Positions 1 to 10,854 of a DNA stretch of 10,854 nt are shown one piece after another; positions within the stretch are counted from its first letter, which is position 1; each line of letters begins with the position of its first letter. The DNA is from an uncultured Eubacteriales bacterium (GTDB lineage: Bacteria > Acidobacteriota > Aminicenantia > Aminicenantales > UBA8522). The notes under the pieces were generated by a model. It saw nothing but the letters and a program-made list of their open reading frames with translations. It ran no database searches and was not told where the DNA came from. The DNA is taken from assembly GCA_964445305.1 (NCBI GenBank), contig CAYUKK010000176.1:1-10854 (forward strand), given 5' to 3'. The position numbers and the translations under genes were made by a program.

Positions 1-75
1 CATACATTAACCTCCCCTACCCCTCTCCGCGAAAGACGCCCCCAGGAATTCTTCCTTAGCCATTAAATCCCCCTA

Positions 76-99
76 CCCCCTTTGAACAATCAAAGGGGG
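76..99. other. Perfect 8-bp stem-loop (CCCCCTTT-gaacaatc-AAAGGGGG). Possibly the terminator-like hairpin of a gene ending upstream of the window; no U-tract follows.
   Basis: Inverted repeat read directly: arms at 76-83 and 92-99 with an 8-nt loop. No T-run follows on either strand, so this is not a canonical intrinsic terminator. Confidence 0.2.
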
Positions 100-338
100 C
101 CTGAGAAAAGGTGGGCGTCTTTCGAGCAGGCCGGAGGGGAAAAATGGTCAGCGTCTCGGGTCAGGTCGGCCCCCGAACCACGCCACTCCTCGGGTGCACT
201 CGCTATCGTGATAATTTGTTACAAGATCAAGCACTTTCGCTTGATGATAATTCTCTATCCGCAAATTTGGGTATGATAGAGGATGTTGAAAGAGGGGGGC
301 GGAATCATGTATAGTCCGTAGGGAATGAAGGTCATCGG

Positions 339-1370
339 ATGAACGCCCTCGTCCTGGTCTTCTCCCTCTTTTCTCGTCTTGCCTGTCGATTAAAGAACCT
401 TATCTACGATATTCACCTCCTTCGACCCGCACGAGCTCCGCTTCCGGTCGTTAGCATCGGCAGCGTTGCTATGGGAGGAACGGAGAAAACCCCTTTGGCC
501 ATGGAAATTCTCCGCTGGCTCCTCGAACGAGGGTATCGGCCCGCCCTCGTTTCTCGCGGTTATAAAGGCGGCTGGGAGAAAAAGGGGGGCGTCGTTTCGG
601 ACGGAAAATCGGTCCTTGCGACCTGGCAACAGGCGGGCGACGAGCCTTTCCTCATCGCCCAATCGGTTCGGGAAGCGGGCGTTTTTGTCGGCAAGAATCG
701 CCTCTCTTCCTGCCTTAGCGCCTTCAACCTCGGCTTCGATATCGCCGTCCTGGACGACGGCTTCCAGCACCGCCGCGTCGGCCGCGACCTCGATATCGCC
801 ATCTATCCCTCTCCCGAAATAAAAGTTCTCCGCGAGTCTCGCCAATCCCTCGGCCGCGCCGATATCATCCTCATCAAGACTTCGATTCAGAATCCGGCGC
901 TCCCATGGCTTCGGCCATCGCCGTTTTCCATTCGCCGCTCCTCAACCCTTCCCTCGGTCCGAGAAAATATCTTCCCTTACAGCGTTGAAGCCCAGGGAAT
1001 GTGGCAACTCTGGGAAGACAAGCCCCTTCCTCAGGTAGATTTAGAAGAAGTACCCCTGGTCGCTTTCTGCGGCATCGCCAGACCCGAGCGTTTTCTTTCC
1101 CTTCTCAAAACAACCGGAGCAAGGGTCGTTTCTTCCATTTTTTTCCCCGACCACTATCCCTACCCGGAATCGTCCATAGAAAAAATTCTTGCTCGGCTTA
1201 AAACTTCAGGCGCGTCAGCGGCCGTGACAACAGAAAAGGATGCGGTCAAAATCCTTGGCCACCGCGCTCGCTTTGGAAAAATCCCCGTTTATTATCTCAA
1301 GATCCGTGTCCATGTTGACCCCGGATTCTACGCCCATCTCGAAAATTTTTTAAAAAAAGCAGCCGGATAA
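339..1370 (+). CDS. lpxK: Tetraacyldisaccharide 4'-kinase (lipid A biosynthesis)
   Basis: 343-aa ORF with ATG start and GAAGG 7 nt upstream. P-loop motif PVVSIGSVAMGGTEKTP corresponds to E. coli LpxK PVVVVGNLTAGGNGKTP. Further matches are VSRGYKGG (VSRGYGG), LDDGFQH (TDDGLQH) and TTEKDAVK (MTEKDAVK). Hydrophobic N-terminus is consistent with a membrane anchor. Confidence 0.88.
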   Translation: MNALVLVFSLFSRLACRLKNLIYDIHLLRPARAPLPVVSIGSVAMGGTEKTPLAMEILRWLLERGYRPALVSRGYKGGWEKKGGVVSDGKSVLATWQQAGDEPFLIAQSVREAGVFVGKNRLSSCLSAFNLGFDIAVLDDGFQHRRVGRDLDIAIYPSPEIKVLRESRQSLGRADIILIKTSIQNPALPWLRPSPFSIRRSSTLPSVRENIFPYSVEAQGMWQLWEDKPLPQVDLEEVPLVAFCGIARPERFLSLLKTTGARVVSSIFFPDHYPYPESSIEKILARLKTSGASAAVTTEKDAVKILGHRARFGKIPVYYLKIRVHVDPGFYAHLENFLKKAAG

Positions 1371-1400
1371 AAAATTGAAGAGCGATAGATCATAACTCCT

Positions 1401-2360
1401 ATGAAATTTATAGAAACGATGGAAATAATAAAAAATTTACCCATAGAAATCGCCCTTCTCGCCTTCCGCTCCCTGTTTTTTGTCCTTCCCCGCCGTGTCT
1501 GCCTTTGTCTCGGCCAAATAGCCGGCCACCTCTTCTTCTCCTTTGACCTCCGTCACCGCCGCATTGCCCTGGCCAACATGGAAAAAGCCTTCGGCCTGGA
1601 GCTTCCCCCCTCCAAACGCTCCCGGCTTGTCCGTCAATCTTTCCTCCATTTCGGCCAAATGCTGGCCGATATCCTCAAGTGGTCATCCCTGAGTCAAGAA
1701 AAGAGAGAAGAACTGCTTCGAGTCGAGGGCGCCGAGAACATCCACCAAGCTTTGCGTCAGGGTCAGGGCATCCTTCTCTTCTCCGCTCACTTTGGCAACT
1801 GGGAAGTAGCCAGTGAGGCCCTGGCCAAGCTGGCTCCCCTTCATGTCGTGGCCCGTCCTCTCGACAGCCGCACCGCCGAAAAGGAGCTCCTCCGCTTCCG
1901 GTCAAGCCTCGGCGCAAGAATCATTTACAAGCACCAGGCGGCAAAGCCCATCCTCCAGGCTCTTCGCCGAAACGAAATGGTGGCCATCCTCATCGACCAG
2001 AATGTTCTCCGCAGTCAGGCCGTCTTCGTCGATTTCTTTGGCCTCCCTGCCGCCACCACTCCCAGCCTGGCCTCTTTCCATCTTCGAAGCCGTGCCCCCC
2101 TCCTCCCGGTTTTCTGCTATCCCACCTCTTCCCTCTCCTACCTCGTCAAGATCTTCCCCCCGCTCGATTTCAAGCCGAGCGGCGATTGGTCGGCCGACGT
2201 ATTGAAAATCACCCAGCATTCGACTAAGATGGTCGAAGCGGAGATCCGCCGCCGACCCGAGCTCTGGTTCTGGTTCCACGACCGCTGGAAAACGAGACCG
2301 CGGTCCGAGGTCGCCCCGTCCAAGACGCTGACGCCCGATATCCAAGGAAATAGAGCTTGA
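1401..2360 (+). CDS. lpxL: Lipid A biosynthesis acyltransferase, LpxL/HtrB (Kdo2-lipid IVA lauroyl/myristoyl acyltransferase) family
   Basis: 319-aa ORF starting 30 bp after lpxK. Hydrophobic N-terminal helix. SAHFGNWE matches the H-x4-E catalytic dyad region of the Lip_A_acyltrans family. Whether it is LpxL, LpxM or LpxP cannot be told by eye. Confidence 0.7.
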   Translation: MKFIETMEIIKNLPIEIALLAFRSLFFVLPRRVCLCLGQIAGHLFFSFDLRHRRIALANMEKAFGLELPPSKRSRLVRQSFLHFGQMLADILKWSSLSQEKREELLRVEGAENIHQALRQGQGILLFSAHFGNWEVASEALAKLAPLHVVARPLDSRTAEKELLRFRSSLGARIIYKHQAAKPILQALRRNEMVAILIDQNVLRSQAVFVDFFGLPAATTPSLASFHLRSRAPLLPVFCYPTSSLSYLVKIFPPLDFKPSGDWSADVLKITQHSTKMVEAEIRRRPELWFWFHDRWKTRPRSEVAPSKTLTPDIQGNRA

Positions 2361-2368
2361 GGCAGAGG

Positions 2369-3115
2369 ATGAGAGAAAAACGTGCCCCTGACGAATTAAG
2401 GCCCGTCAAGATTCAGCTTGATTATCTCGATTACGCCCACGGCTCGGCCTTCCTCGAAATCGGCAAGACGCGAGTCATCGCCGCCGCGACCGTCGACGAC
2501 AAAGTTCCGCCCTTCCTCAAGGGTATGGGCACGGGATGGGTGACGGCCGAATACGAAATGCTCCCCTGCTCGACCGAAAAAAGGACCATCCGCGAGAGAA
2601 CCCAGGGACGGATCTCGGGCCGAAGCCAGGAAATCCAGCGCCTCATCGGGCGGGCCCTCCGCGCCGCTACCGACCTCGATTCCCTGGGCGAGCGAACGGT
2701 CATCATCGACTGCGACGTCATCCAGGCCGACGGTGGCACCCGAGTCGCCTCCGTCACCGCCGGTTGCGTCGCTCTGGCCCTCGCCTTGAAAAAACTCCTC
2801 GATGAAAAGGTCATCGACCAGATGCCCCTTCGCCATCTCGTCTGTGGGGTGAGTGTCGGCATTGTCGACGGCCAGCCACTCCTCGACCTTGACTACAGCG
2901 AGGATTCCCAGGCTGCGCTCGATATGAACGTTGTCGAAACTGACGATGGGCATCTCGTTGAGGTCCAGGCCTCAGCCGAGAAAGCGCCGTTCTCCCGGAA
3001 GGACTTGGCATCGCTCCTCCGCCTTGCCGACAAGGGCATCAAGGAACTCATCCAAATCCAGAAGGCCGCTCTCAAGAAAAAAAGCCTCCTCTTCATGGCC
3101 TACGGCCGAAGTTGA
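2369..3115 (+). CDS. rph: Ribonuclease PH (tRNA nucleotidyltransferase)
   Basis: Near-colinear match to E. coli RNase PH throughout: DELRPVKI.., [57 protein letters not shown]....DL.Y.EDS.A..DMNVV. The true start is taken as ATG 2369 (GAGG 7 nt upstream) rather than the TTG 2357 reported by the ORF track. This leaves an 8-bp gap after the lpxL-family stop. Confidence 0.93.
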
Positions 3116-3134
3116 AGGGAAAAAGGAGGGAAGA

Positions 3135-4088
3135 ATGCGAAGGATTCTTGTCACCGGCGGGGCCGGCTTTCTCGGCAGCCACCTCTGCGAATACCTTCTC
3201 CGGGCGGGCGCGGACGTTGTCTGCGTCGATAACTTTTTTTCCGGGAGCAAGGACAACATCCGTCACCTCCTCGACCATCCCTACTTTGAGCTCATCCGCC
3301 ACGACGTCATCCACCCCCTCTTCCTCGAGGTAGACCAGATTTACCACCTCGCCTGCCCTGCTTCGCCCATCCACTACCAGCATAACCCCATCAAGACGGT
3401 CAAGACCAATGTCATGGGGACGATCAACATGCTCGGCCTGGCCAAGCGGATCAAGGCGCGCATCCTGCTCGCCTCTTCCTCGGAGGTTTACGGCGACGCC
3501 GAAGTCCATCCCCAGCCCGAAACCTACTGGGGAAATGTCAACCCCATCGGCCCCCGCAGCTGCTACGACGAAGGCAAGCGCGTGGCCGAGACACTGATGA
3601 TGGATTACTCCCGGCAGAACAATGTCGACATCCGCATCGCCCGCATCTTCAACACCTACGGCCCCCGCATGGCCATAAACGACGGCCGCGTCGTCAGCAA
3701 CTTCATTGTCCAGGCTCTTCGGGGCGAAAACCTGACTATCTATGGCGACGGCAAACAGACGCGCTCTTTCTGCTACGTCTCTGACCTCATCGAGGCGCTG
3801 GTGAAACTCATGAATAGCGAAGCAATCCGGACGCCGGTCAACCTGGGCAATCCCGTTGAATGCAGCGTTCTCGAGTTGGCCGAAATCATCCTCCGGCTCA
3901 CCCAAAGTTCATCGAGAATCGATTTCCGCCCCTTGCCCGCTGACGACCCGGCACGGCGTTGTCCCGACATTACGCTCGCCCGAGAAAAGCTGGGCTGGGA
4001 GCCCCGCGTGAGCCTGGAGGAAGGGCTTCAGAAGACGATCGCCTACTTCGAAGAAAAGCTTGAAATCAGGAACGGGCAAGGCCCGTAA
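3135..4088 (+). CDS. uxs: UDP-glucuronate decarboxylase (UDP-xylose synthase), extended-SDR NAD-dependent epimerase/dehydratase
   Basis: Start ATG 3135 ([16 protein letters not shown], Rossmann GxxGxxG) with AAGGAGGG RBS 5-12 nt upstream. The catalytic Y-x3-K is present as SCYDEGKR. Long stretches typical of UXS/ArnA-C-terminal decarboxylases are seen ([53 protein letters not shown]). The ORF-track N-extension from 2931 overlaps rph and is treated as an artefact. Confidence 0.85.
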
Positions 4089-4136
4089 GAATAGCTGGGC
4101 AAGACTTAGAAATGAGAAATAAAGGTCGAGATAAAT

Positions 4137-4168
4137 TTAGATAACGGGAATGCGAAGAAATAAAAAAT
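4137..4168 (+). promoter_or_regulatory. Candidate sigma70-like promoter in the AT-rich spacer upstream of the GT2 gene (TTAGAT-N18-TAAAAAAT)
   Basis: -35-like TTAGAT at 4137-4142 and an A/T-rich -10-like TAAAAA(AT) at 4161-4168. The surrounding 80 bp are strongly AT-rich relative to the ~60% GC context. A motif match only. Confidence 0.25.
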
Positions 4169-4173
4169 AAAGA

Positions 4174-4221
4174 GATGGATGGATAGATAGATGGATGGCC
4201 GGATGGATGGCCGGATGGATA
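4174..4221. repeat. Imperfect tetranucleotide tandem repeat, 12 units of GATR/GCCG (GATG GATG GATA GATA GATG GATG GCCG GATG GATG GCCG GATG GATA). It contains a 12-bp unit GATGGATGGCCG repeated 2.7x.
   Basis: Read directly from the sequence. 10 of 12 units are GAT[G/A]. It lies between the putative promoter and the GT2 start codon. Confidence 0.9.
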
Positions 4222-4294
4222 AACGAAGAATTTCTTGGCCAACGAAGAAAAAGACGGAGGACCAACAAAGGAAGAGGAAGAAACGGGGCGCCGG

Positions 4295-4981
4295 GTGAAG
4301 CTTTCGATCATTATTCCCGTTTACAATGAAGTTCGGACGATAGAAGAAATCCTCCGCCGCGTTCAATCGGTCGACGTCGGCCTGGACAAGGAGATCGTTG
4401 TCGTCGACGACGGCTCGACCGACGGCACCCGTGCCATTCTCGAGCGGCTCGCCTCGCCCGCCGTCAAAATCCTCTTCCACGCGAAGAATCAGGGCAAGGG
4501 CGCTGCCCTCCACACCGGTTTTGCGGCCGCCACCGGCGATATCCTCCTTGTTCAGGACGCCGACCTCGAGTACGACCCAAGAGAGTATCCCAAGCTCCTT
4601 GAGCCCATCCTGGACGGCCGGGCTGATGCCGTCTATGGCAGCCGTTTCCTCGGCGGTCCCCACCGCGTCCTCTTCTTCTGGCACTACGTCGGCAACCGCA
4701 TCATCACGACCCTCTCCAACATGCTGTCCAACCTCAACCTCACGGACATGGAAACATGCTACAAGGTCTTCAAAAGAGACATCATCCGCCAGATCAGCCT
4801 CAAGTCGAAGCGGTTCGGGTTTGAGCCGGAAATTACCCAAAAGCTGGCCAAGCTGAAATGCCGGGTCTATGAAGTCCCCATCTCTTACTCTGGCCGCGAT
4901 TATGCCGAGGGGAAAAAAATCACCTGGAAAGATGGCCTGGCCGCTATCTTCCACATCCTTCGCTTCCGCTTCTTCAATTGA
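4295..4981 (+). CDS. Family-2 glycosyltransferase, polyprenyl-phosphate sugar synthase type (DPM1/ArnC/GtrB-like)
   Basis: KLSIIIPVYNE..., VVVDDGSTDGT and QDADLEYDP (DxD) form the typical GT-A N-terminus of dolichyl/undecaprenyl-phosphate glycosyltransferases. Product is ~230 aa with no C-terminal TM segments, i.e. the short soluble DPM1-like form. The start is ambiguous: GTG 4295 (giving MKLSIIIP, with G-rich RBS-like sequence upstream) or the TTG at 4235 used by the ORF track. Confidence 0.8.
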   Translation: MKLSIIIPVYNEVRTIEEILRRVQSVDVGLDKEIVVVDDGSTDGTRAILERLASPAVKILFHAKNQGKGAALHTGFAAATGDILLVQDADLEYDPREYPKLLEPILDGRADAVYGSRFLGGPHRVLFFWHYVGNRIITTLSNMLSNLNLTDMETCYKVFKRDIIRQISLKSKRFGFEPEITQKLAKLKCRVYEVPISYSGRDYAEGKKITWKDGLAAIFHILRFRFFN

Positions 4982-5231
4982 CAGCCTCCTCATCCCTCGC
5001 CCAATTCCTCATCGGCCTCGAGCCTTCGAGCCAGGGTCGTTTCCTCATTGACAGCGTTCAGGACGCCGTTGACCTTGAGCGGAGGCCGCACGATCTCACC
5101 CCCTAACGTTTTGTTTCTTTACGGCGTGGCCCAAAATTGCCCATAGGAAATGACGATCGACACAATACGCTTGCCTTTCTTACGGATAGGCGAGATAGGG
5201 AACGCACTTGAGGCGTGGCGTCGCGGGCGGC

Positions 5232-5260
5232 TTGACTTTCCTTTGGCCATAAATATATTA
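5232..5260 (+). promoter_or_regulatory. Strong sigma70-like promoter for the flotillin gene: TTGACT-N16-TATATT
   Basis: -35 TTGACT at 5232-5237 (5/6 consensus) and -10 TATATT at 5254-5259 (5/6), with a 16-bp spacer, in an AT-rich patch. The predicted ~80-nt 5'UTR contains a GTTTCG-caat-CGAAAC stem-loop (5283-5298) and a GGAGGAGG RBS (5333-5340) 5 nt before the ATG at 5346. Confidence 0.5.
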
Positions 5261-5345
5261 TTTTTATTTCATTTAGCTACTTGTTTCGCAATCGAAACGG
5301 GCGAGTCATCTCCACGACCAAAGGAATGATTCGGAGGAGGTCATC

Positions 5346-6755
5346 ATGAGCCTTGTCTCCTGGCTTATCATCATCGGCATCATCGTCGTCCTCCTGGCAC
5401 TCATCATCATCGTTCTGGCCATCCAGTACCGCAAGGTCGGGCCTAACGAAGTCTTGATTATCTCGGGCGGCCGGAAGAGGACGGTCACTGCTCCGGACGG
5501 GACCAAAGTCAAGGTCGGCTACCGCTACCGCCTTGGCGGCGGCACATTTGTCATCCCCTTTGTCGAAACCGTCTACACCCTCCCCCTCGACGTCGTCACC
5601 CTGAACATCCGCACCCCTGAAGTCCTGACCCACAGCGGTGTGCCCATCATGGCTGAGGCCACGGCTCAGGTCAAAATCGATTCCTCGGACTCAGCCATCC
5701 GGCTGGCAGCCGAACAGTTCCTGGGCACGGGAAAAGAGGGTATTCGGGATGTCTCCCTCAACGTCCTCGAGGGGAAGATGCGGGAAGTTATCGGCACCAT
5801 GACCGTCGAGGAGATTTACCGCGGCCGTCATGAGTTCAATTCTCGCGTCGCTGAGGCCATCCGTGACGATTTCGCCCGCATGGGCTTGGTCATGCTCTCC
5901 TTCACCCTCAAGGACATCAGCGATACCCAGGGCTACCTGGATTCCCTGAGCAAGCCGCAAATCGCTGCTGCCAAGAGGGACGCCGCCATCGCTGAGGCCG
6001 AAACCGAGAAAGAAGCAGTCATCAAGTCCTCCCAGGCGCGCAAAGAGGCAGAGGTGGCCCGCCTCGCCGCTGAAGCCCTTATCGCCAAGGCCCAATGGGA
6101 AAACGAGGCCAAAAAAGCAGAATCCCAGGTCGCCGTCAACCAGAAGAAAGCCCAGGCCGATTTCTCCTACGAGCTCGAACGGTTCCGCCTCAGCCAGCAG
6201 ATCAAGAAAGAAGAGGCCAAGATGAAGGCCATCGAGAAGGAGGAGGCCATCAAGATCGAAGAGCTCGAAATCGCCCGGCGCGAGAAAGAGCTCGAATCGA
6301 GCGTCATCAAGCCGGCCGACGCCCGCAAGTACCAGATCAAGGCCGAAGCAGAAGCCGAGGAATTCCGCATCCAGGCCGAAGCCAAAGGTAAAGCTGAGGC
6401 TCTCCGCCTCGAGGGTGAAACCGAAGCCGAACTCTTGAAAAAGAAGGGCATGGCCGAGGCCGAGGCGATGCTGAAGAAGGCCCAGGCCTGGGAAAAGTAC
6501 AATCAGGCCGCCATCCTGGAAATGTACTTCCATATCCTTCCCGAGCTGGCCAAAGCCGTCTCCGAGCCGCTCTCCAAAGTGGATAAAATCGTCGTCGTCG
6601 GTGGCGGCGACAAGAGTCTCGGCACGACCAAGATCACGGCCCAGGTGGCTGAAATCCTTTCCCAGATGCCCGAGGTCGTCAAGTCCTTGACCGGAGTTGA
6701 CCTCAAGAAATACCTGAAGGAAAAGCTGACGCCGGAAGAAAAAGAAGAGAAATAG
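5346..6755 (+). CDS. floT: Flotillin-like SPFH/band-7 membrane scaffold protein (FloT/YuaG-type)
   Basis: N-terminal TM helix [20 protein letters not shown] followed by [15 protein letters not shown] (flotillin signature entry into the SPFH domain). It has a long C-terminal coiled coil with E/A/K-rich flotillin repeats ([43 protein letters not shown]). 469 aa. Confidence 0.85.
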
Positions 6756-6785
6756 CCTCCCGGAAGGCCCAAGGAGAGGCACGCC

Positions 6786-9131
6786 ATGATTTCAGAGAAA
6801 GCGAACCAAATCGGCACATCCCCCACCCTCAAGATTACGGCCAAGGCCAAGGCCATGAAGGCCGAGGGGATTGACATCATCGATTTGAGCGTCGGCGAAC
6901 CGGATTTCCCCACGCCCGAGAATGCAAAGGCGGCCGGGATTCGGGCCATCCAGCAGAATTTCACCAAGTATACGGAAAACGAAGGTATCCCGGCGCTCAA
7001 GAAAGCCATCATCGCCAGGATGAAGGAGGATTATGGCCTCGCCTATGAGATGAACGAGGTCATCGTCTCGACGGGCGCTAAAAGCTCGCTCTTCCTCCTC
7101 ATCCAGGCCCTGGTTAATGACGGGGAGGAAGTTATCATCCCCGCCCCCTACTGGGTGACTTACCCTCAGGCAGTCGTGCTGGCCAAAGGCAAGCCCGTTA
7201 TCATCCCGACCAAGGAGGAAAATGGCTTTCTTCTTACGCCCGAGGAGCTCAAGGCGGCCATTTCCCCGGCGACCAAAGCCCTCATCCTCAACAATCCCTC
7301 CAACCCAACCGGCGCTGCCTATTCCAGGGCTCAGCTCGAAGCTTTGGTTGATGTCATTCGCGGCGAGGACCTTTATGTTATCGCCGATGAAATCTACGCC
7401 AAGCTCATTTTCGATGGCTTCGAGTTTGTGAGCTTCCCCTCCCTCGGCGAGGACATCAAAGCCAAGACCATCCTTATCAGCGGCGTCTCCAAGTCCTACT
7501 CCATGACCGGCTGGCGGATAGGGTTTGCTCTGGGGCCGGCCGAAATCATCAACGCCATGGCTAAAATCCAGAGCCATTCAACCTCCAACCCTTGCTCCAT
7601 CTCCCAGCAAGCCAGCCTGGAAGCTCTGACCGGGCCGCAGCATGAGGTCGCCCGCATGGCCGCTGAATTCCAGCGCCGGCGCAACTACTGCCTGATGCGG
7701 CTCAACGCCATCCCCAATATCTCCTGTTTCAAGCCCCGGGGCGCTTTCTACCTCTTCCCCAATTTCTCGGCTTATTATGAAAAAGAGGCGGGCGGTGTTC
7801 TCATCCGGAATTCCTACGGCCTGGCCTACTACCTGCTCAAGGAAGCGAAAGTGGCCATCGTCCCGGGCGATTCTTTTGGCGCGGATAATTACATCCGTCT
7901 TTCCTACGCCACATCGATGGAGAACCTGGAGAAAGGGATGGACCGGATTATCGAGGCCGTCTCCAAGCTCAAGACGCCGAAGAAAATCAAGCGGGTCGCC
8001 CTCAACAACACCATCACTCGAGTGAAGAGAGCTGTGCCCGTTGACGCATCCCTGCCGACCAAGATGCGCGATGCTCTCGTCGCCGAGATGGAGGGACATC
8101 TTCCCGTCGAGAACTACTACGAATGGAACGCCAACATCGCGGGAATCGTCGTCCAGCTTCGAACGAATGTTGCGCACCTCTATGATTTCTGGGTCGAGAA
8201 CTGGTTTCCGGCCCAGCTCGAAGCGGATATCGAGCCCCACGGCATCATTTATGCTGTGGATGGAGTCGCCGGTCGGGAGCCGAGAGCTTTTTACAACTCC
8301 GAGACAAAGACAGGGGTCCTCGTCAACACGGATAACTACGGCCCGTTGCGGAGCCTCGCCCTTGGTCTGGTCATGGATGTCACGGAAAGGCTCTACGGCG
8401 CCTGCGCTATCCGCGGCATGGCCGCCGCTGTCGAGGACAACGGCCGAGGCCTTATCCTCGTCGGACCGCCTGGAACGCGGAAGACCGAGCTCTTCTTCGA
8501 GCTCCTCGAGGATAAGCGGTTCAAAATCCAGGCTAACGAAATCATTCTTGTCCGGGCCGCGGGCGGAAAGGCGCAAGCGGAATGCGTCGAGAGAAAGCTT
8601 TATATGCCGACGAATACGGTCGAGAACTTCTCGCGCCTGGCGCCTCTTTTTGACGCGAGCAAGTGCGAAAACGTTGTCATCCACAAGGACGGATGCCAGG
8701 ATGAGGCTTGCCTCAGGGGCGAAGATTGCCGCCTCGACCGGGGGTCTCCCTTCTGCTACAAGGCCTCCAAAGAAGCGCATGCCATGCTCGACCCCAACTG
8801 GATTGGGGGCAAAAGTGCCCACGCCAGACGGACGACCCTGAGCTGGATATTCTTTCTCCGCTATGACCCGTCATCGCCGGCTGCTGTCCGCCTGGAGAAG
8901 GAGGAAGCGCTGCGCATCCTTGAATCGGGCGAAGCGTTAGGTTTGAAGAAAGCCCTCTCTCCGGCCAAACCACAGCCTTACTACAACCCCCACCTTTTGG
9001 TGACGACGGAGGAACGGCTGGAGCTCCAGAAAGCGTTCTTCAGCCGATTGCTGGATATCGTCCCCTGCTATCTGTTCAACAGCGGCGTGGCCGGCGCCGA
9101 GACAATAAAGCAACTGACCGCGGGCGAATAG
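6786..9131 (+). CDS. Fusion protein of 781 aa. Residues ~1-400 are a class-I PLP-dependent aspartate (aspartate/prephenate) aminotransferase. Residues ~400-781 are a domain resembling the HPr kinase/phosphorylase C-terminal P-loop kinase fold.
   Basis: N-terminal half: NNPSNPTG, the SGVSKSYSMTGWRIG PLP-lysine motif (Lys236, nt 7491-7493) and a C-terminal IRLSYA.S region, all typical of the AspAT-Ib subgroup. C-terminal half: GRGLILVGPPGTRKTELFFELLEDKRFKIQANEIILV aligns in spacing to HprK [36 protein letters not shown]. A later EEALRILESGEA matches HprK EETLRILDTEI. The reading frame is continuous with no stop, and no RBS precedes the internal Met427, so a genuine fusion is favoured. RBS AAGGAGAGG precedes ATG 6786, which lies 30 bp after the flotillin stop. 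Confidence 0.8.
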   Translation: MISEKANQIGTSPTLKITAKAKAMKAEGIDIIDLSVGEPDFPTPENAKAAGIRAIQQNFTKYTENEGIPALKKAIIARMKEDYGLAYEMNEVIVSTGAKSSLFLLIQALVNDGEEVIIPAPYWVTYPQAVVLAKGKPVIIPTKEENGFLLTPEELKAAISPATKALILNNPSNPTGAAYSRAQLEALVDVIRGEDLYVIADEIYAKLIFDGFEFVSFPSLGEDIKAKTILISGVSKSYSMTGWRIGFALGPAEIINAMAKIQSHSTSNPCSISQQASLEALTGPQHEVARMAAEFQRRRNYCLMRLNAIPNISCFKPRGAFYLFPNFSAYYEKEAGGVLIRNSYGLAYYLLKEAKVAIVPGDSFGADNYIRLSYATSMENLEKGMDRIIEAVSKLKTPKKIKRVALNNTITRVKRAVPVDASLPTKMRDALVAEMEGHLPVENYYEWNANIAGIVVQLRTNVAHLYDFWVENWFPAQLEADIEPHGIIYAVDGVAGREPRAFYNSETKTGVLVNTDNYGPLRSLALGLVMDVTERLYGACAIRGMAAAVEDNGRGLILVGPPGTRKTELFFELLEDKRFKIQANEIILVRAAGGKAQAECVERKLYMPTNTVENFSRLAPLFDASKCENVVIHKDGCQDEACLRGEDCRLDRGSPFCYKASKEAHAMLDPNWIGGKSAHARRTTLSWIFFLRYDPSSPAAVRLEKEEALRILESGEALGLKKALSPAKPQPYYNPHLLVTTEERLELQKAFFSRLLDIVPCYLFNSGVAGAETIKQLTAGE

Positions 9132-9141
9132 GCTGAGCCTC

Positions 9142-9178
9142 GTCTTGCCAGCGGCAGCGACCCGATCTCTCTTTTTTC
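9142..9178 (+). terminator. Weak candidate intrinsic terminator after the fusion gene
   Basis: Imperfect GC hairpin (GUC-UUGCC-agc-GGCAG-c-GAC, 9142-9161) is followed about 10 nt later by CTCTCTTTTTTCT (9166-9178). The stem is bulged and the T-run is distal, so the call is weak. Confidence 0.2.
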
Positions 9179-9362
9179 TACCCCTTCATCGAGGTCATAG
9201 CAGACCTGGATCAAATTACGAACTTCAAAATCTTTTCTGACCACAAAATATACCTCTCTCCCTTGACTATTTTTCCAGAAAAATACTTCTCCTCCCTTCA
9301 GCCCTCTCCTTAACAGATCCAGGAAAACAAGATTTTCACATAGCCATTCTTTCAAAATAGTC

Positions 9363-9938
9363 CTAATTAGATTTATCCGAAAAGAGGCGGTTCTCGAGGG
9401 CTTCAGCCAGAAGGTGAAGGAGGAGAAGATGGACCTCCTGGACGCGAGGTGTGGAAGTCGAGGGAACATCGAGAAGATAATCGGATAGGGAGGCGAGCCT
9501 ACCACCGCCCTGGCCGGTCATGGCCACCGTCAGCATCCCTTTCTGGCGGGCCGCTTTGAGGCCCTCGACGATGTTGACTGAGGTCCCGCTTGTCGAAAGA
9601 GCGAGAGCAATATCCCCTTTGTCGCCGAGCGCCTCAATCTGCCGGCTGAAAACGTAATCATAAGACGAATCATTGGCCACAGAGGTAAGAGTCGACGTAT
9701 CAGTCGTCAGGGCGATCGCCCGCATGGGTTGTCTTATGCGGAGGAATTTGTTGACGAGTTCCGCGGCAAAGTGCTGGGCCTCAGCCGCGCTCCCGCCGTT
9801 GCCGAAAACGAGGATTTTCCGGCCCTCCCCAAGGGCCCTGGCGACGGCCTCGATCATGACCTCAAAGAGGTCACTCTTCTGCTCGAAAAAATTCTTGAGG
9901 ATAGCATGAATATCAACCTGAATGTATCCATATTTCAT
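9363..9938 (-). CDS. gmhA: Phosphoheptose isomerase (D-sedoheptulose-7-phosphate isomerase), SIS domain; LPS core heptose pathway
   Basis: 191 aa. [20 protein letters not shown] matches GmhA [47 protein letters not shown] matches [27 protein letters not shown]. The QEVHLLLLH region matches QEIHIKVIH. RBS AAGGAG lies 6 nt upstream of the ATG on the − strand. Confidence 0.9.
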   Translation of the reverse strand: [191 protein letters not shown]

Positions 9939-9974
9939 CGCCTGCTCCTTAGGTCTCGCTTATTTCCTTTGACC

Positions 9975-10003
9975 ATTATAACCTATTCCCACACATCCCG
10001 GAT
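9975..10003 (-). promoter_or_regulatory. Candidate gmhA promoter: perfect -10 TATAAT (− strand, + coordinates 9975-9980) with a poor -35
   Basis: The − strand reads GGTTATAATGG about 37 nt upstream of the gmhA ATG. No good TTGACA-like hexamer sits 16-18 bp upstream (ATCCGG/TGATCC). A hexamer match only. Confidence 0.3.
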
Positions 10004-10042
10004 CATTATTTCCTCTCGCTATCTCCACGGGAGTACTTCCAT

Positions 10043-10069
10043 GAAGAAAAGCTATGTCCTTTTTTCTTC
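10043..10069. other. 8-bp inverted repeat GAAGAAAA-(11 nt)-TTTTCTTC in the plsC-family/gmhA intergenic region
   Basis: Arms at 10043-10050 and 10062-10069, read directly. It is located between the acyltransferase stop (10168) and the gmhA promoter candidate. It could be an operator, or the terminator hairpin of the upstream − strand gene. No U-tract follows on the − strand. Confidence 0.3.
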
Positions 10070-10167
10070 GTGGCATTCCTCCTTCAAGAGGCAAATTTCA
10101 GGACTCTGAGCTTTCACCGTCAAAATGGATTCGGCTTTAAGGCCGTCCCGGCGAGTGCTTCCTTCGG

Positions 10168-10854
10168 TCAATTGCGAAGTCCTGATTCAATAGCGGCCTT
10201 GACTCTTTCGATCAACACCGACATGTTGCTCTGGTCATATCCCTCGACCGGAATGGGCGGATGGAAAAGCACATGGATGAGCCCCCGTCGTGTTGAAAAC
10301 CTTCCCCGCGGCATGAGTTCATACGTTCCCCTGATGGTGACGGGCACAATCGGCGTCCGGCTTTCCAGAGCGAGAAAAAAGCCGCCGCGCTTGAAAGCCT
10401 GGAGGCGGCCATCCCGGCTCCTCGTTCCCTCGGGAAAAATAAGGAAGGAATAGCGGCGGCGGCGCATGAGCTGGATGGCTTTGTCAATACTCCGCTTGCC
10501 CCCCCACATCTTCTTCCTGTCGACAGGAATGAAGCCGACGTATTTCATGCCCACGCCGATGATCGGAATCCGGAACACTTCTTTTTTGAGGATGACCCGG
10601 ATGGGTCGGGGGATGAGCCAGAAGAGCAGGGGTCCGTCGAGGAAGCTCAAATGGTTGGCCATGAAGACATAAGGAGCTCGGCGATCCAATCGCTCCCGGC
10701 CAGAGACCTCGACCTTGAGCCCGAGAATACGGCAACCGAGGCTCATCGCCCACTTGGCAATCCGGAGGAGAGGGTCGCGAACGCCGAACGGCCAGAAGAG
10801 GAGGAGCAAGAGGAAAAGAAATATCGTCAGGAGAGCATAGATGAGGAGGAGAAT
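10168..10854 (-). CDS. 1-acyl-sn-glycerol-3-phosphate acyltransferase (PlsC/LPLAT family). The 5' end lies outside the window.
   Basis: Two LPLAT-family acyltransferase motifs are present: FMANHLSFLDGPLL (H-x4-D block) and FPEGTRSRDG. The ORF track's TTG at 10809 is not a real start. Translating the − strand to the window edge continues without a stop through a hydrophobic segment (ILLLIYALLTIFLFLLLLFWPF), so the gene is truncated by the window. Confidence 0.75.
   Translation of the reverse strand: MLLLIYALLTIFLFLLLLLFWPFGVRDPLLRIAKWAMSLGCRILGLKVEVSGRERLDRRAPYVFMANHLSFLDGPLLFWLIPRPIRVILKKEVFRIPIIGVGMKYVGFIPVDRKKMWGGKRSIDKAIQLMRRRRYSFLIFPEGTRSRDGRLQAFKRGGFFLALESRTPIVPVTIRGTYELMPRGRFSTRRGLIHVLFHPPIPVEGYDQSNMSVLIERVKAAIESGLRN

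Follow-up and report, generated by a model that had tools for sequence, protein, structure and literature searches.

An aspartate aminotransferase fused to a compact domain derived from phosphoenolpyruvate carboxykinase in Aminicenantes

Central carbon metabolism is switched chiefly at the phosphoenolpyruvate (PEP)-pyruvate-oxaloacetate node, where phosphoenolpyruvate carboxykinase (PEPCK) is among the best-studied enzymes. The systems closest to the gene described here are the class Ib aspartate aminotransferases (AspATs), the ATP-dependent PEPCKs (PckA; PF01293; Trypanosoma cruzi 1ii2, Escherichia coli 1aq2 and 1os1, Thermus 2pc9), the C-terminal domain of HprK/P (PF07475; 1jb1, 1ko7, 1knx) and the Euglena gracilis complex I accessory subunit NDUEG2 (8j9h_E2). 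The gene encodes a single 781-residue protein in which an AspAT is followed by a compact PEPCK-like domain, and it lies on a 10,854-nucleotide stretch of DNA, hereafter the window, from an uncultured bacterium of the Aminicenantales (contig CAYUKK010000176.1 of assembly GCA_964445305.1, positions 1 to 10,854, forward strand). Its parts are as follows.

6786..9131, forward strand: the whole fusion gene, 781 amino acids with an ATG start, encoding AspAT, then a linker, then a compact PEPCK-like domain of the R-type (defined below).
6786..7970, forward strand: class Ib AspAT domain, residues 1-395, with the motifs NNPSNPTG and ADEIY, the pyridoxal phosphate (PLP)-lysine motif VSKSYSMTGWRIG and IRLSYA.
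7971..8045, forward strand: basic linker KTPKKIKRVALNNTITRVKRAVPVD, which holds a conserved N-x-x-T motif (protein N408 and T411).
7986..9128, forward strand: compact PEPCK-fold domain ("mini-PEPCK", R-type), residues 401-781, equivalent to E. coli PckA residues ~74-446.
8463..8486, forward strand: Walker-A P-loop GPPGTRKT, protein G560-T567, equivalent to PckA G248-T255.
8694..8756, forward strand: cysteine cluster C-x4-C-x5-C-x8-C, protein C637, C642, C648 and C657, an insert after the (C)ENV motif.

The N-terminal half is, at family level, the aspartate aminotransferase that the first-pass annotation of this DNA had recognised. Pfam PF00155 (Aminotran_1_2) matches residues 30-388 with 268.1 bits (gathering cutoff 19.7; E 1.7e-79), and the N-terminal 395 residues align end to end, at E-values of 1e-89 to 1e-108, with the closest solved relatives, which are the AspATs 6f35 (3.8e-108), 1j32 and 6f77, the prephenate/aspartate aminotransferase 5wmh and the Thermus AspAT 1bkg. 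All PLP motifs of these enzymes are shared, the patterns S-K-x-x-x-M-T-G-W-R, N-P-x-N-P-T-G and D-E-I-Y being represented by VSKSYSMTGWRIG, NNPSNPTG and ADEIY, which match 6f35 and 1j32 column by column. The best NCBIfam models are aspartate transaminases; because PRK06107 scores 443.6 bits, under its equivalog cutoff of 617, and the archaeal AspAT model 393.9 bits, under its cutoff of 550, the family assignment is safe and the exact substrate range is not. Judged from its sequence, this half is an AspAT-type class Ib enzyme, predicted to interconvert aspartate and 2-oxoglutarate with oxaloacetate and glutamate. The solved enzymes, in contrast to the fusion, all lack a C-terminal extension.

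The C-terminal half had been read at first pass as an HprK-like P-loop kinase, a label that holds at the level of the superfamily, through a common P-loop core, and fails at the level of the HprK family. A Pfam search with the C-terminal 381 residues matched no family, and none of the Pfam or NCBIfam PEPCK models was reached by the window's own domain. Alignment by hhalign of the family profile with a PEPCK profile, both of them rich, gave a probability of 99.5% (E 2e-21) over 340 columns spanning E. coli PckA residues ~74-454; these profiles were used in place of the single-sequence comparison with E. coli PckA, which was weak (23%). Stand-alone relatives of the domain match the NCBIfam PEPCK subfamily NF006821 directly (3e-8 and 8e-14). 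In the structure search proposed at first pass, the domain matches the whole two-lobed PEPCK fold, including the N-lobe that HprK/P lacks. Fold and profile evidence together identify the domain as a compact whole PEPCK fold and a PEPCK homologue rather than an HPr kinase, and its likeness to HprK/P comes solely through the P-loop core common to both families. It belongs to the PEPCK-like superfamily but can be assigned neither to PEPCK proper nor to HprK/P, since some defining features of each were tested and found to be absent. The top Foldseek match is PDB 9a4u, which according to its entry title (PCKA-QOX2) is an integrative model, derived from cross-linking mass spectrometry; QOX2 may be a membrane oxidase component, in which case the entry could offer a possible precedent for a PEPCK contacting a membrane complex.

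The divergence from PEPCK proper is concentrated in the active site. In E. coli PckA, we take the Mn2+ ligands to be Lys213, His232 and Asp269, the substrate-binding residues to be Arg65 and Arg333, together with Lys288, and the adenine-binding segment to follow residue ~446. Mutant structures of PckA are listed for R65Q, Y207F, K212, K213S, S250A, K254S and D269N, so that most of the audited residues are studied positions, Lys213 (2py7, K213S) and Asp269 (6com and 6v2m, D269N) among them. In the C-terminal domain, whose residues are numbered here so that the addition of 400 gives the protein residue number, the profile alignment places S123, R143 and D/E185 at the three ligand positions, two of the three ligands thus being replaced. 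The replacements, from PckA to the domain, are K212 to R122, K213 to S123, H232 to R143, D268 to N184 and K288 to P208, and the Arg333 position is H265, which varies between H, F, Y, V, M and S among orthologues. An equivalent of Arg65 is absent, the alignment beginning at PckA residue 74 with the first ~73 residues missing, and the adenine-binding C-terminal segment is absent too, the domain ending ~15 residues past YLFNSG, the equivalent of YLVNTG (436-441). Retained are the P-loop Lys254 and Thr255 of PEPCK (K166 and T167), the Mn2+ ligand equivalent to D269 (D/E185), Y118 beside the position of PckA Y207, and the ENV and NSG motifs. Canonical PEPCK membership is ruled out on these catalytic residues. 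Compared with ATP-PEPCK, the domain is also ~160 residues shorter, adds the cysteine cluster and the aminotransferase partner, and stays under every PEPCK threshold of Pfam and NCBIfam.

Across 72 Aminicenantes orthologues this altered site is under strong purifying selection. Within the C-terminal domain 67 residues are invariant, many of them Arg, Lys, His or Asn aligning with PEPCK cleft regions, and its mean identity to the window sequence is 67%, compared with 78% for the aminotransferase half. In the P-loop, G160, G163, T164 and K166 are invariant, and among the patterns listed position 167 holds T or S. The N8 of the linker motif N-x-x-T is invariant and T11 nearly so, and the motif is kept in stand-alone relatives as well; in the predicted model of the domain, the predicted local distance difference test score (pLDDT) is low across residues 1-20. 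All four cysteines of the cluster are invariant, and the insert takes the place of a PEPCK surface hairpin. Its spacing is that of neither a classical zinc ribbon nor a ferredoxin motif, and it is missing from some stand-alone relatives and from the archaeal PEPCK-fused copies described below; a metal-binding knuckle, perhaps for zinc, is its probable nature.

The fusion of AspAT and mini-PEPCK is genuine and old. The frame 6786..9131 is open over 781 codons with no stop between the halves, as reported at first pass. When one genome per species was scanned with a motif, 303 proved to encode a relative, and the best 80 of the 303, which were examined as loci, are all Aminicenantes, three of them complete chromosomes and some titled with the placeholder "Eubacteriales". 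With the full protein as tblastn query, ~70 of the 80 species-representative genomes returned one unbroken segment (query 1-781, 67-88% identity); in the remaining loci contig ends cut the fusion, and frame breaks occur solely in L049 and L074. At the nucleotide level the window is 82.6% identical to the Aminicenantes loci L003 and L005, which identifies its source as an Aminicenantes bacterium. Full-length fusions of 779-817 amino acids also occur beyond Aminicenantes, for example in Latescibacteria, and the shorter, partial records labelled Zixibacteria contain both halves. The taxonomic spread of the two-domain architecture, for which the first-pass annotation had suggested a search, takes in Aminicenantes, Latescibacteria, Zixibacteria and others, with a C-terminal partner that is PEPCK-derived and not HprK.

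An exhaustive profile search placed the domain in a larger family, with 377 representative clusters at E<=1e-3 and 205 at E<=1e-10, most of whose members are stand-alone proteins of 350-570 amino acids. The aminotransferase-fused copies form what is termed here the R-type, with R122, R143, a residue other than Arg at 265 and D269-P-x-W272; the window's domain belongs to the family by HMMER and carries these residues. R-type aminotransferase fusions are found in Aminicenantes, Latescibacteria, Zixibacteria and others, and in several of the Zixibacteria type the P-loop Lys is R or M. The stand-alone proteins belong to the same HMMER family, with equal compact fold boundaries and the N-terminal N-x-x-T motif, and differ in that most keep the catalytic set and in being unlinked to AspAT, PEPCK or flotillin. 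Among 73 scored members, 40 are of an H-type that has the PEPCK-like set K122, H143, GTGK[ST], DD, R208 and R265; from these residues the H-type stand-alone proteins are probably active enzymes. A small, far branch of the family has lost the P-loop wholly.

The neighbourhoods of the stand-alone members (80 metagenome loci) contain no PEPCK, NDK or flotillin gene except in L139, which is itself an Aminicenantes-type fusion locus. They hold an occasional aminotransferase, archaeal housekeeping genes and, in nine loci, an agmatinase/ureohydrolase-like gene directly upstream on the same strand, and offer no pointer to what the proteins do. Several H-type genes (L143, L145, L147, L148, L150, L153, L154 and similar) lie on archaeal-looking contigs beside genes that, judged by eye, resemble those for an ATP-dependent DNA ligase, a topoisomerase and a primase, and the H-type proteins of such contigs may be unrecognised compact carboxykinases or kinases. 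One stand-alone protein of 754 amino acids (P0195) carries an intein (PF14890, 1.5e-16) at ~216-393, beyond the part covered by the family profile as far as the P-loop. Sites that are conserved and important for the function of active enzymes are where inteins usually lie.

The R-type domain is connected with genuine PEPCK by four independent lines of evidence: natural fusions, gene order, linkage in distant carriers and a C-terminal tail on the associated PEPCKs. The first is a group of ~100 clusters of 880-910-residue proteins, annotated simply as PEPCK, in which an R-type domain stands N-terminal to a genuine PEPCK_ATP, and which are found in Asgard archaea, Bathyarchaeia, Altiarchaeota and a few bacteria. 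Their N-terminal ~330 residues are an R-type mini-PEPCK with the identical derived residues, including R122 in 92 of 94 archaeal copies, R143 in 93 of 94, H, Y or F at 265, and D269 and W272 of the DPxW motif. They differ from the fusion in the window in that the partner is a catalytic PEPCK rather than AspAT, the Cys4 insert is absent, the P-loop lysine is often lost, and neither a flotillin nor an aminotransferase gene lies nearby. Since the Walker lysine is K in only 35 of the 94 copies, the function of the R-type domain in the archaeal fusions needs no phosphoryl transfer. Taken with the R or M at this position in several Zixibacteria-type fusions, this means that whatever function is conserved throughout the R-type cannot rest on such a transfer.

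The second and third lines are seen in gene order. Directly downstream of the fusion, 42 of the 80 Aminicenantes loci have a complete ~610-residue ATP-PEPCK, whose sequence fits all canonical catalytic motifs (PF01293 5.5e-22; NF006821 286 bits), and in L170 and L171 the fusion and PEPCK genes overlap by 4 nucleotides. Elsewhere the order is Band_7 (flotillin), fusion, PEPCK and NDK (L084), fusion, NDK and PEPCK (L083), reverse-strand PEPCK, Band_7 and fusion (L167, Latescibacteria), or fusion and NDK (L168, Zixibacteria). The fourth line is an extra C-terminal tail of ~60 residues, a variable acidic linker followed by a conserved basic-aromatic motif, that is carried by the bacterial PEPCKs accompanying the aminotransferase fusion. 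The motif is SK[ST]RPRRxxFWRS[RK] in Aminicenantes and of the RDRGWR[WY][RG] type (RDRGWRWR* or RGWRYG*) in Latescibacteria and L083, and no such tail is found on the archaeal mini-PEPCK::PEPCK fusions or on stand-alone 545-residue PEPCKs. The tail could be a docking peptide or a membrane-binding element. Tail-bearing PEPCK genes that adjoin aminotransferase fusions are located as follows.

L018:9198-11009: tail-bearing PEPCK.
L084:8291-10132: tail-bearing PEPCK.
L083:3192-5048: tail-bearing PEPCK.
L167:2275-4116, reverse strand: tail-bearing PEPCK.

The fusion gene is also linked, at its 5' side, to a flotillin gene, and the expression signals around the two are as follows.

5232..5261, forward strand: sigma-70-like promoter match TTGACT-16/18-TATATT upstream of the flotillin gene, a consensus match (3 sites found, 1.6 expected).
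5346..6755, forward strand: flotillin/SPFH (Band_7) gene, 469 amino acids (Pfam Band_7 1.6e-30, Flot 2.8e-5).
6771-6779, forward strand: Shine-Dalgarno-like AAGGAGAGG, read from the sequence, 6 nucleotides 5' of the fusion ATG.

With the flotillin-like open reading frame ending at 6755, the fusion does begin 30 bp past it, as noted at first pass, and a flotillin gene stands directly 5' of the fusion, with a gap of ~30 nucleotides, in each of the 72 Aminicenantes loci whose contig extends that far. L084, the Latescibacteria locus L167, L169 and L170 show the same arrangement, and the linkage spans phyla. An NfeD partner of the flotillin was not seen in the loci inspected, and no terminator-like site was found on the forward strand between the flotillin and fusion genes. 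The promoter match at 5232..5261 is a possible start of a transcription unit comprising flotillin and fusion.

Two arrangements occur downstream. In type A loci, found in about half of the Aminicenantes species, the order is flotillin, fusion, PEPCK and a reverse-strand SIS-domain gene ~1.9 kb downstream; in type B loci the SIS gene begins 9-260 nucleotides past the fusion with no PEPCK in between, which looks like a clean excision or a relocation of the PEPCK gene. The key residues of the mini-PEPCK domain are alike in the two types, save for P or K at 162. No similarity to PEPCK was detected within the window.

Tentatively, and at slightly less than even odds, the R-type mini-PEPCK can be read as a PEPCK-derived accessory module for ligand binding or assembly, through which AspAT would be coupled, at oxaloacetate, to the reaction of PEPCK. 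An accessory module is preferred to a canonical carboxykinase or an HprK-type kinase because Mn2+ ligands and several substrate-binding residues are replaced and Arg65 and the adenine segment are absent. The AspAT half would make or consume oxaloacetate, the substrate or product of PEPCK, and the cleft of the mini-PEPCK would probably bind a phosphorylated or carboxylated metabolite such as ATP or ADP, PEP or oxaloacetate. The domain, itself probably non-catalytic, would then couple AspAT functionally, and probably physically, to the ~610-residue ATP-PEPCK, along the series aspartate, oxaloacetate and PEP in either direction, and a complex of the two enzymes, if it channels, might limit the loss of labile oxaloacetate. 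Fold, PEPCK homology, substitutions, conservation, linkage and natural fusions are the observations with which such a role would be consistent.

Several observations weigh against this reading. In the window, which like the loci of ~26 other species is of type B (interval 9132-9362), no PEPCK separates the fusion from the SIS gene; nor was a 610-residue PEPCK found elsewhere in type B genomes among the best 120 of 1429 matches, all of them close relatives of the type A query, and three further PEPCK look-ups again led to type A loci. Across all 72 Aminicenantes orthologues the Walker lysine, like other polar residues, never varies, which also fits a retained nucleotide-dependent chemistry. An AlphaFold2 model of a natural archaeal mini-PEPCK::PEPCK fusion has good local confidence (pLDDT 85.9), a predicted template-modelling score of only 0.64 and a disordered linker. 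It lends no support to the idea that the mini domain docks on PEPCK in cis in one fixed position, arrangements in trans or in oligomers being possible. The residue equivalences themselves come from profile alignment and a predicted model, without an inspected superposition.

The main rival, itself unlikely, is the proposal that the C-terminal domain is catalytic in its own right, a compact PEPCK-like enzyme that is independent of Mn2+ or differently metallated. The protein would then be a one-chain converter of aspartate to PEP (or to pyruvate, via oxaloacetate decarboxylation) or, in reverse, a synthase of aspartate from PEP and CO2. This proposal is favoured by the invariant K166 with T or S at 167, by D/E185, Y118 and E202/R203/K204, which are invariant or nearly so in the 72 orthologues, and by the type B genomes, the window included, which keep the fusion with no adjacent PEPCK. 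Most stand-alone members keep the catalytic set (40 of 73), which makes it probable that the family, taken together, consists of enzymes. R122 and R143 stand where metal ligands used to be and could stabilise an enolate or a phosphate. The Arg-substituted domain may be a new metal-independent enzyme of PEP and oxaloacetate. Against it stand the replacement of two of the three Mn2+ ligands and of the Lys288 and Arg333 equivalents, the Arg333 position being unconserved even within Aminicenantes, together with the absence of the Arg65 segment and of the adenine pocket. In the archaeal PEPCK-fused copies, which are the nearest relatives of this sub-type, the Walker lysine is often lost and the domain shares a polypeptide with a complete PEPCK, beside which a second PEPCK activity would be redundant.

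The coupling reading can be extended to the membrane, in a more speculative and rather doubtful form. Flotillin, the AspAT::pseudo-PEPCK fusion and the tail-bearing ATP-PEPCK would together form a membrane-microdomain metabolon, in which a retired PEPCK paralogue would act as an adaptor or sensor that hands oxaloacetate on between aspartate and PEP. The PEPCK tail RPRRxxFWRSR would then be a docking or membrane-anchoring element, and the archaeal version would be hard-wired as a single mini-PEPCK::PEPCK polypeptide. The conserved link to flotillin in any case raises the question of whether a soluble metabolic step is localised at the membrane.

An HprK/P-like (PF07475, TIGR00679) serine kinase/phosphorylase of proteins or peptides, which would switch the aminotransferase, or else a carrier protein or peptide, by phosphorylation, is very improbable. 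HprK/P chains are the best sequence-level matches of the family profile in the PDB, but these are weak (E ~0.005) and confined to the P-loop region. Comparison with the hidden Markov models named at first pass gave no PF07475 match at E<=10 and 13.7 bits (E 0.025) for TIGR04352 (HprK_rel_A), whose cutoff is 200, TIGR04355 not being listed; a few relatives have faint PF07475 matches. All these scores are far under the family thresholds and cover ~50-60 residues near the P-loop, the core that HprK/P and PEPCK have in common, whereas the structure fits a whole PEPCK with its N-lobe and not the HprK domain fold. Compared with the HprK Walker-A motif GxSGxGK[ST], GPPGTRKT keeps G, G, K and T and has R at the third Gly (K or N in orthologues), and the His before the P-loop in HprK/P aligns with Arg. 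The conserved neighbourhood contains no genes for HPr, precursors of ribosomally synthesised and post-translationally modified peptides (RiPPs), lasso peptides or exosortase.

An assembly or annotation artefact, in which a hidden frameshift joins two ordinary genes, can be dismissed for practical purposes: split calls in L001 and L084 and frame breaks in L049 and L074, a few long-read or low-coverage relatives, are set against continuous 781-residue alignments in ~70 independent species genomes from many studies, complete chromosomes included, and against the full-length fusions of Latescibacteria and others. The concern raised at first pass about a frameshift near nucleotides 7950-8070 is excluded because the alignment is unbroken across those genomes, and inspection of the split call in L001, a long-read relative whose halves are called apart, agrees with this. 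There the break lies within the aminotransferase C-terminus, away from the domain junction, and the second frame reads straight through from the aminotransferase tail over the linker into the C-terminal domain. The frameshifted fusions (L001:4724-7065, L084:6001-8287, L049 and L074) are mostly from long-read or low-coverage assemblies, and gene callers divide each of them into two entries, "aminotransferase" and "hypothetical protein". Many full fusions of this family are probably concealed in public records annotated "partial aminotransferase".

The mini-PEPCK domain, a new domain family in a new architecture and with a probable new role, is represented by no model in Pfam or NCBIfam. Full-text literature searches gave no account of the AspAT::mini-PEPCK architecture, the archaeal N-terminal PEPCK extension, PEPCK-like pseudo-domains or a flotillin-PEPCK link. 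A widespread PEPCK-derived domain lies outside the coverage of both databases, its derived form, fused to AspAT or to PEPCK, being probably non-catalytic. If the domain couples enzymes or senses metabolites, it would represent a new principle of regulation or channelling for labile oxaloacetate, and "PEPCK" and "aminotransferase" annotations in its hosts, which are abundant uncultured anaerobes, would need a different reading.

An Rfam scan of the window found no RNA family. A 295-residue open reading frame at 4106-4993 (reverse strand) has no Pfam match and is conserved in 32 loci. Another, of 145 residues at 9068-9505 (reverse strand), overlaps both the SIS gene and the last part of the fusion, matches DUF4143 weakly and below cutoff (1.8e-4) and has no counterpart in 80 related loci, and is probably spurious. 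The genes surrounding the flotillin-fusion pair, at 339-4088 and 9363-10809, encode LpxK, a lipid A acyltransferase, RNase PH, an NAD-dependent epimerase/dehydratase, the SIS-domain protein and an acyltransferase, a set that resembles envelope and lipopolysaccharide housekeeping and whose order is conserved across Aminicenantes.

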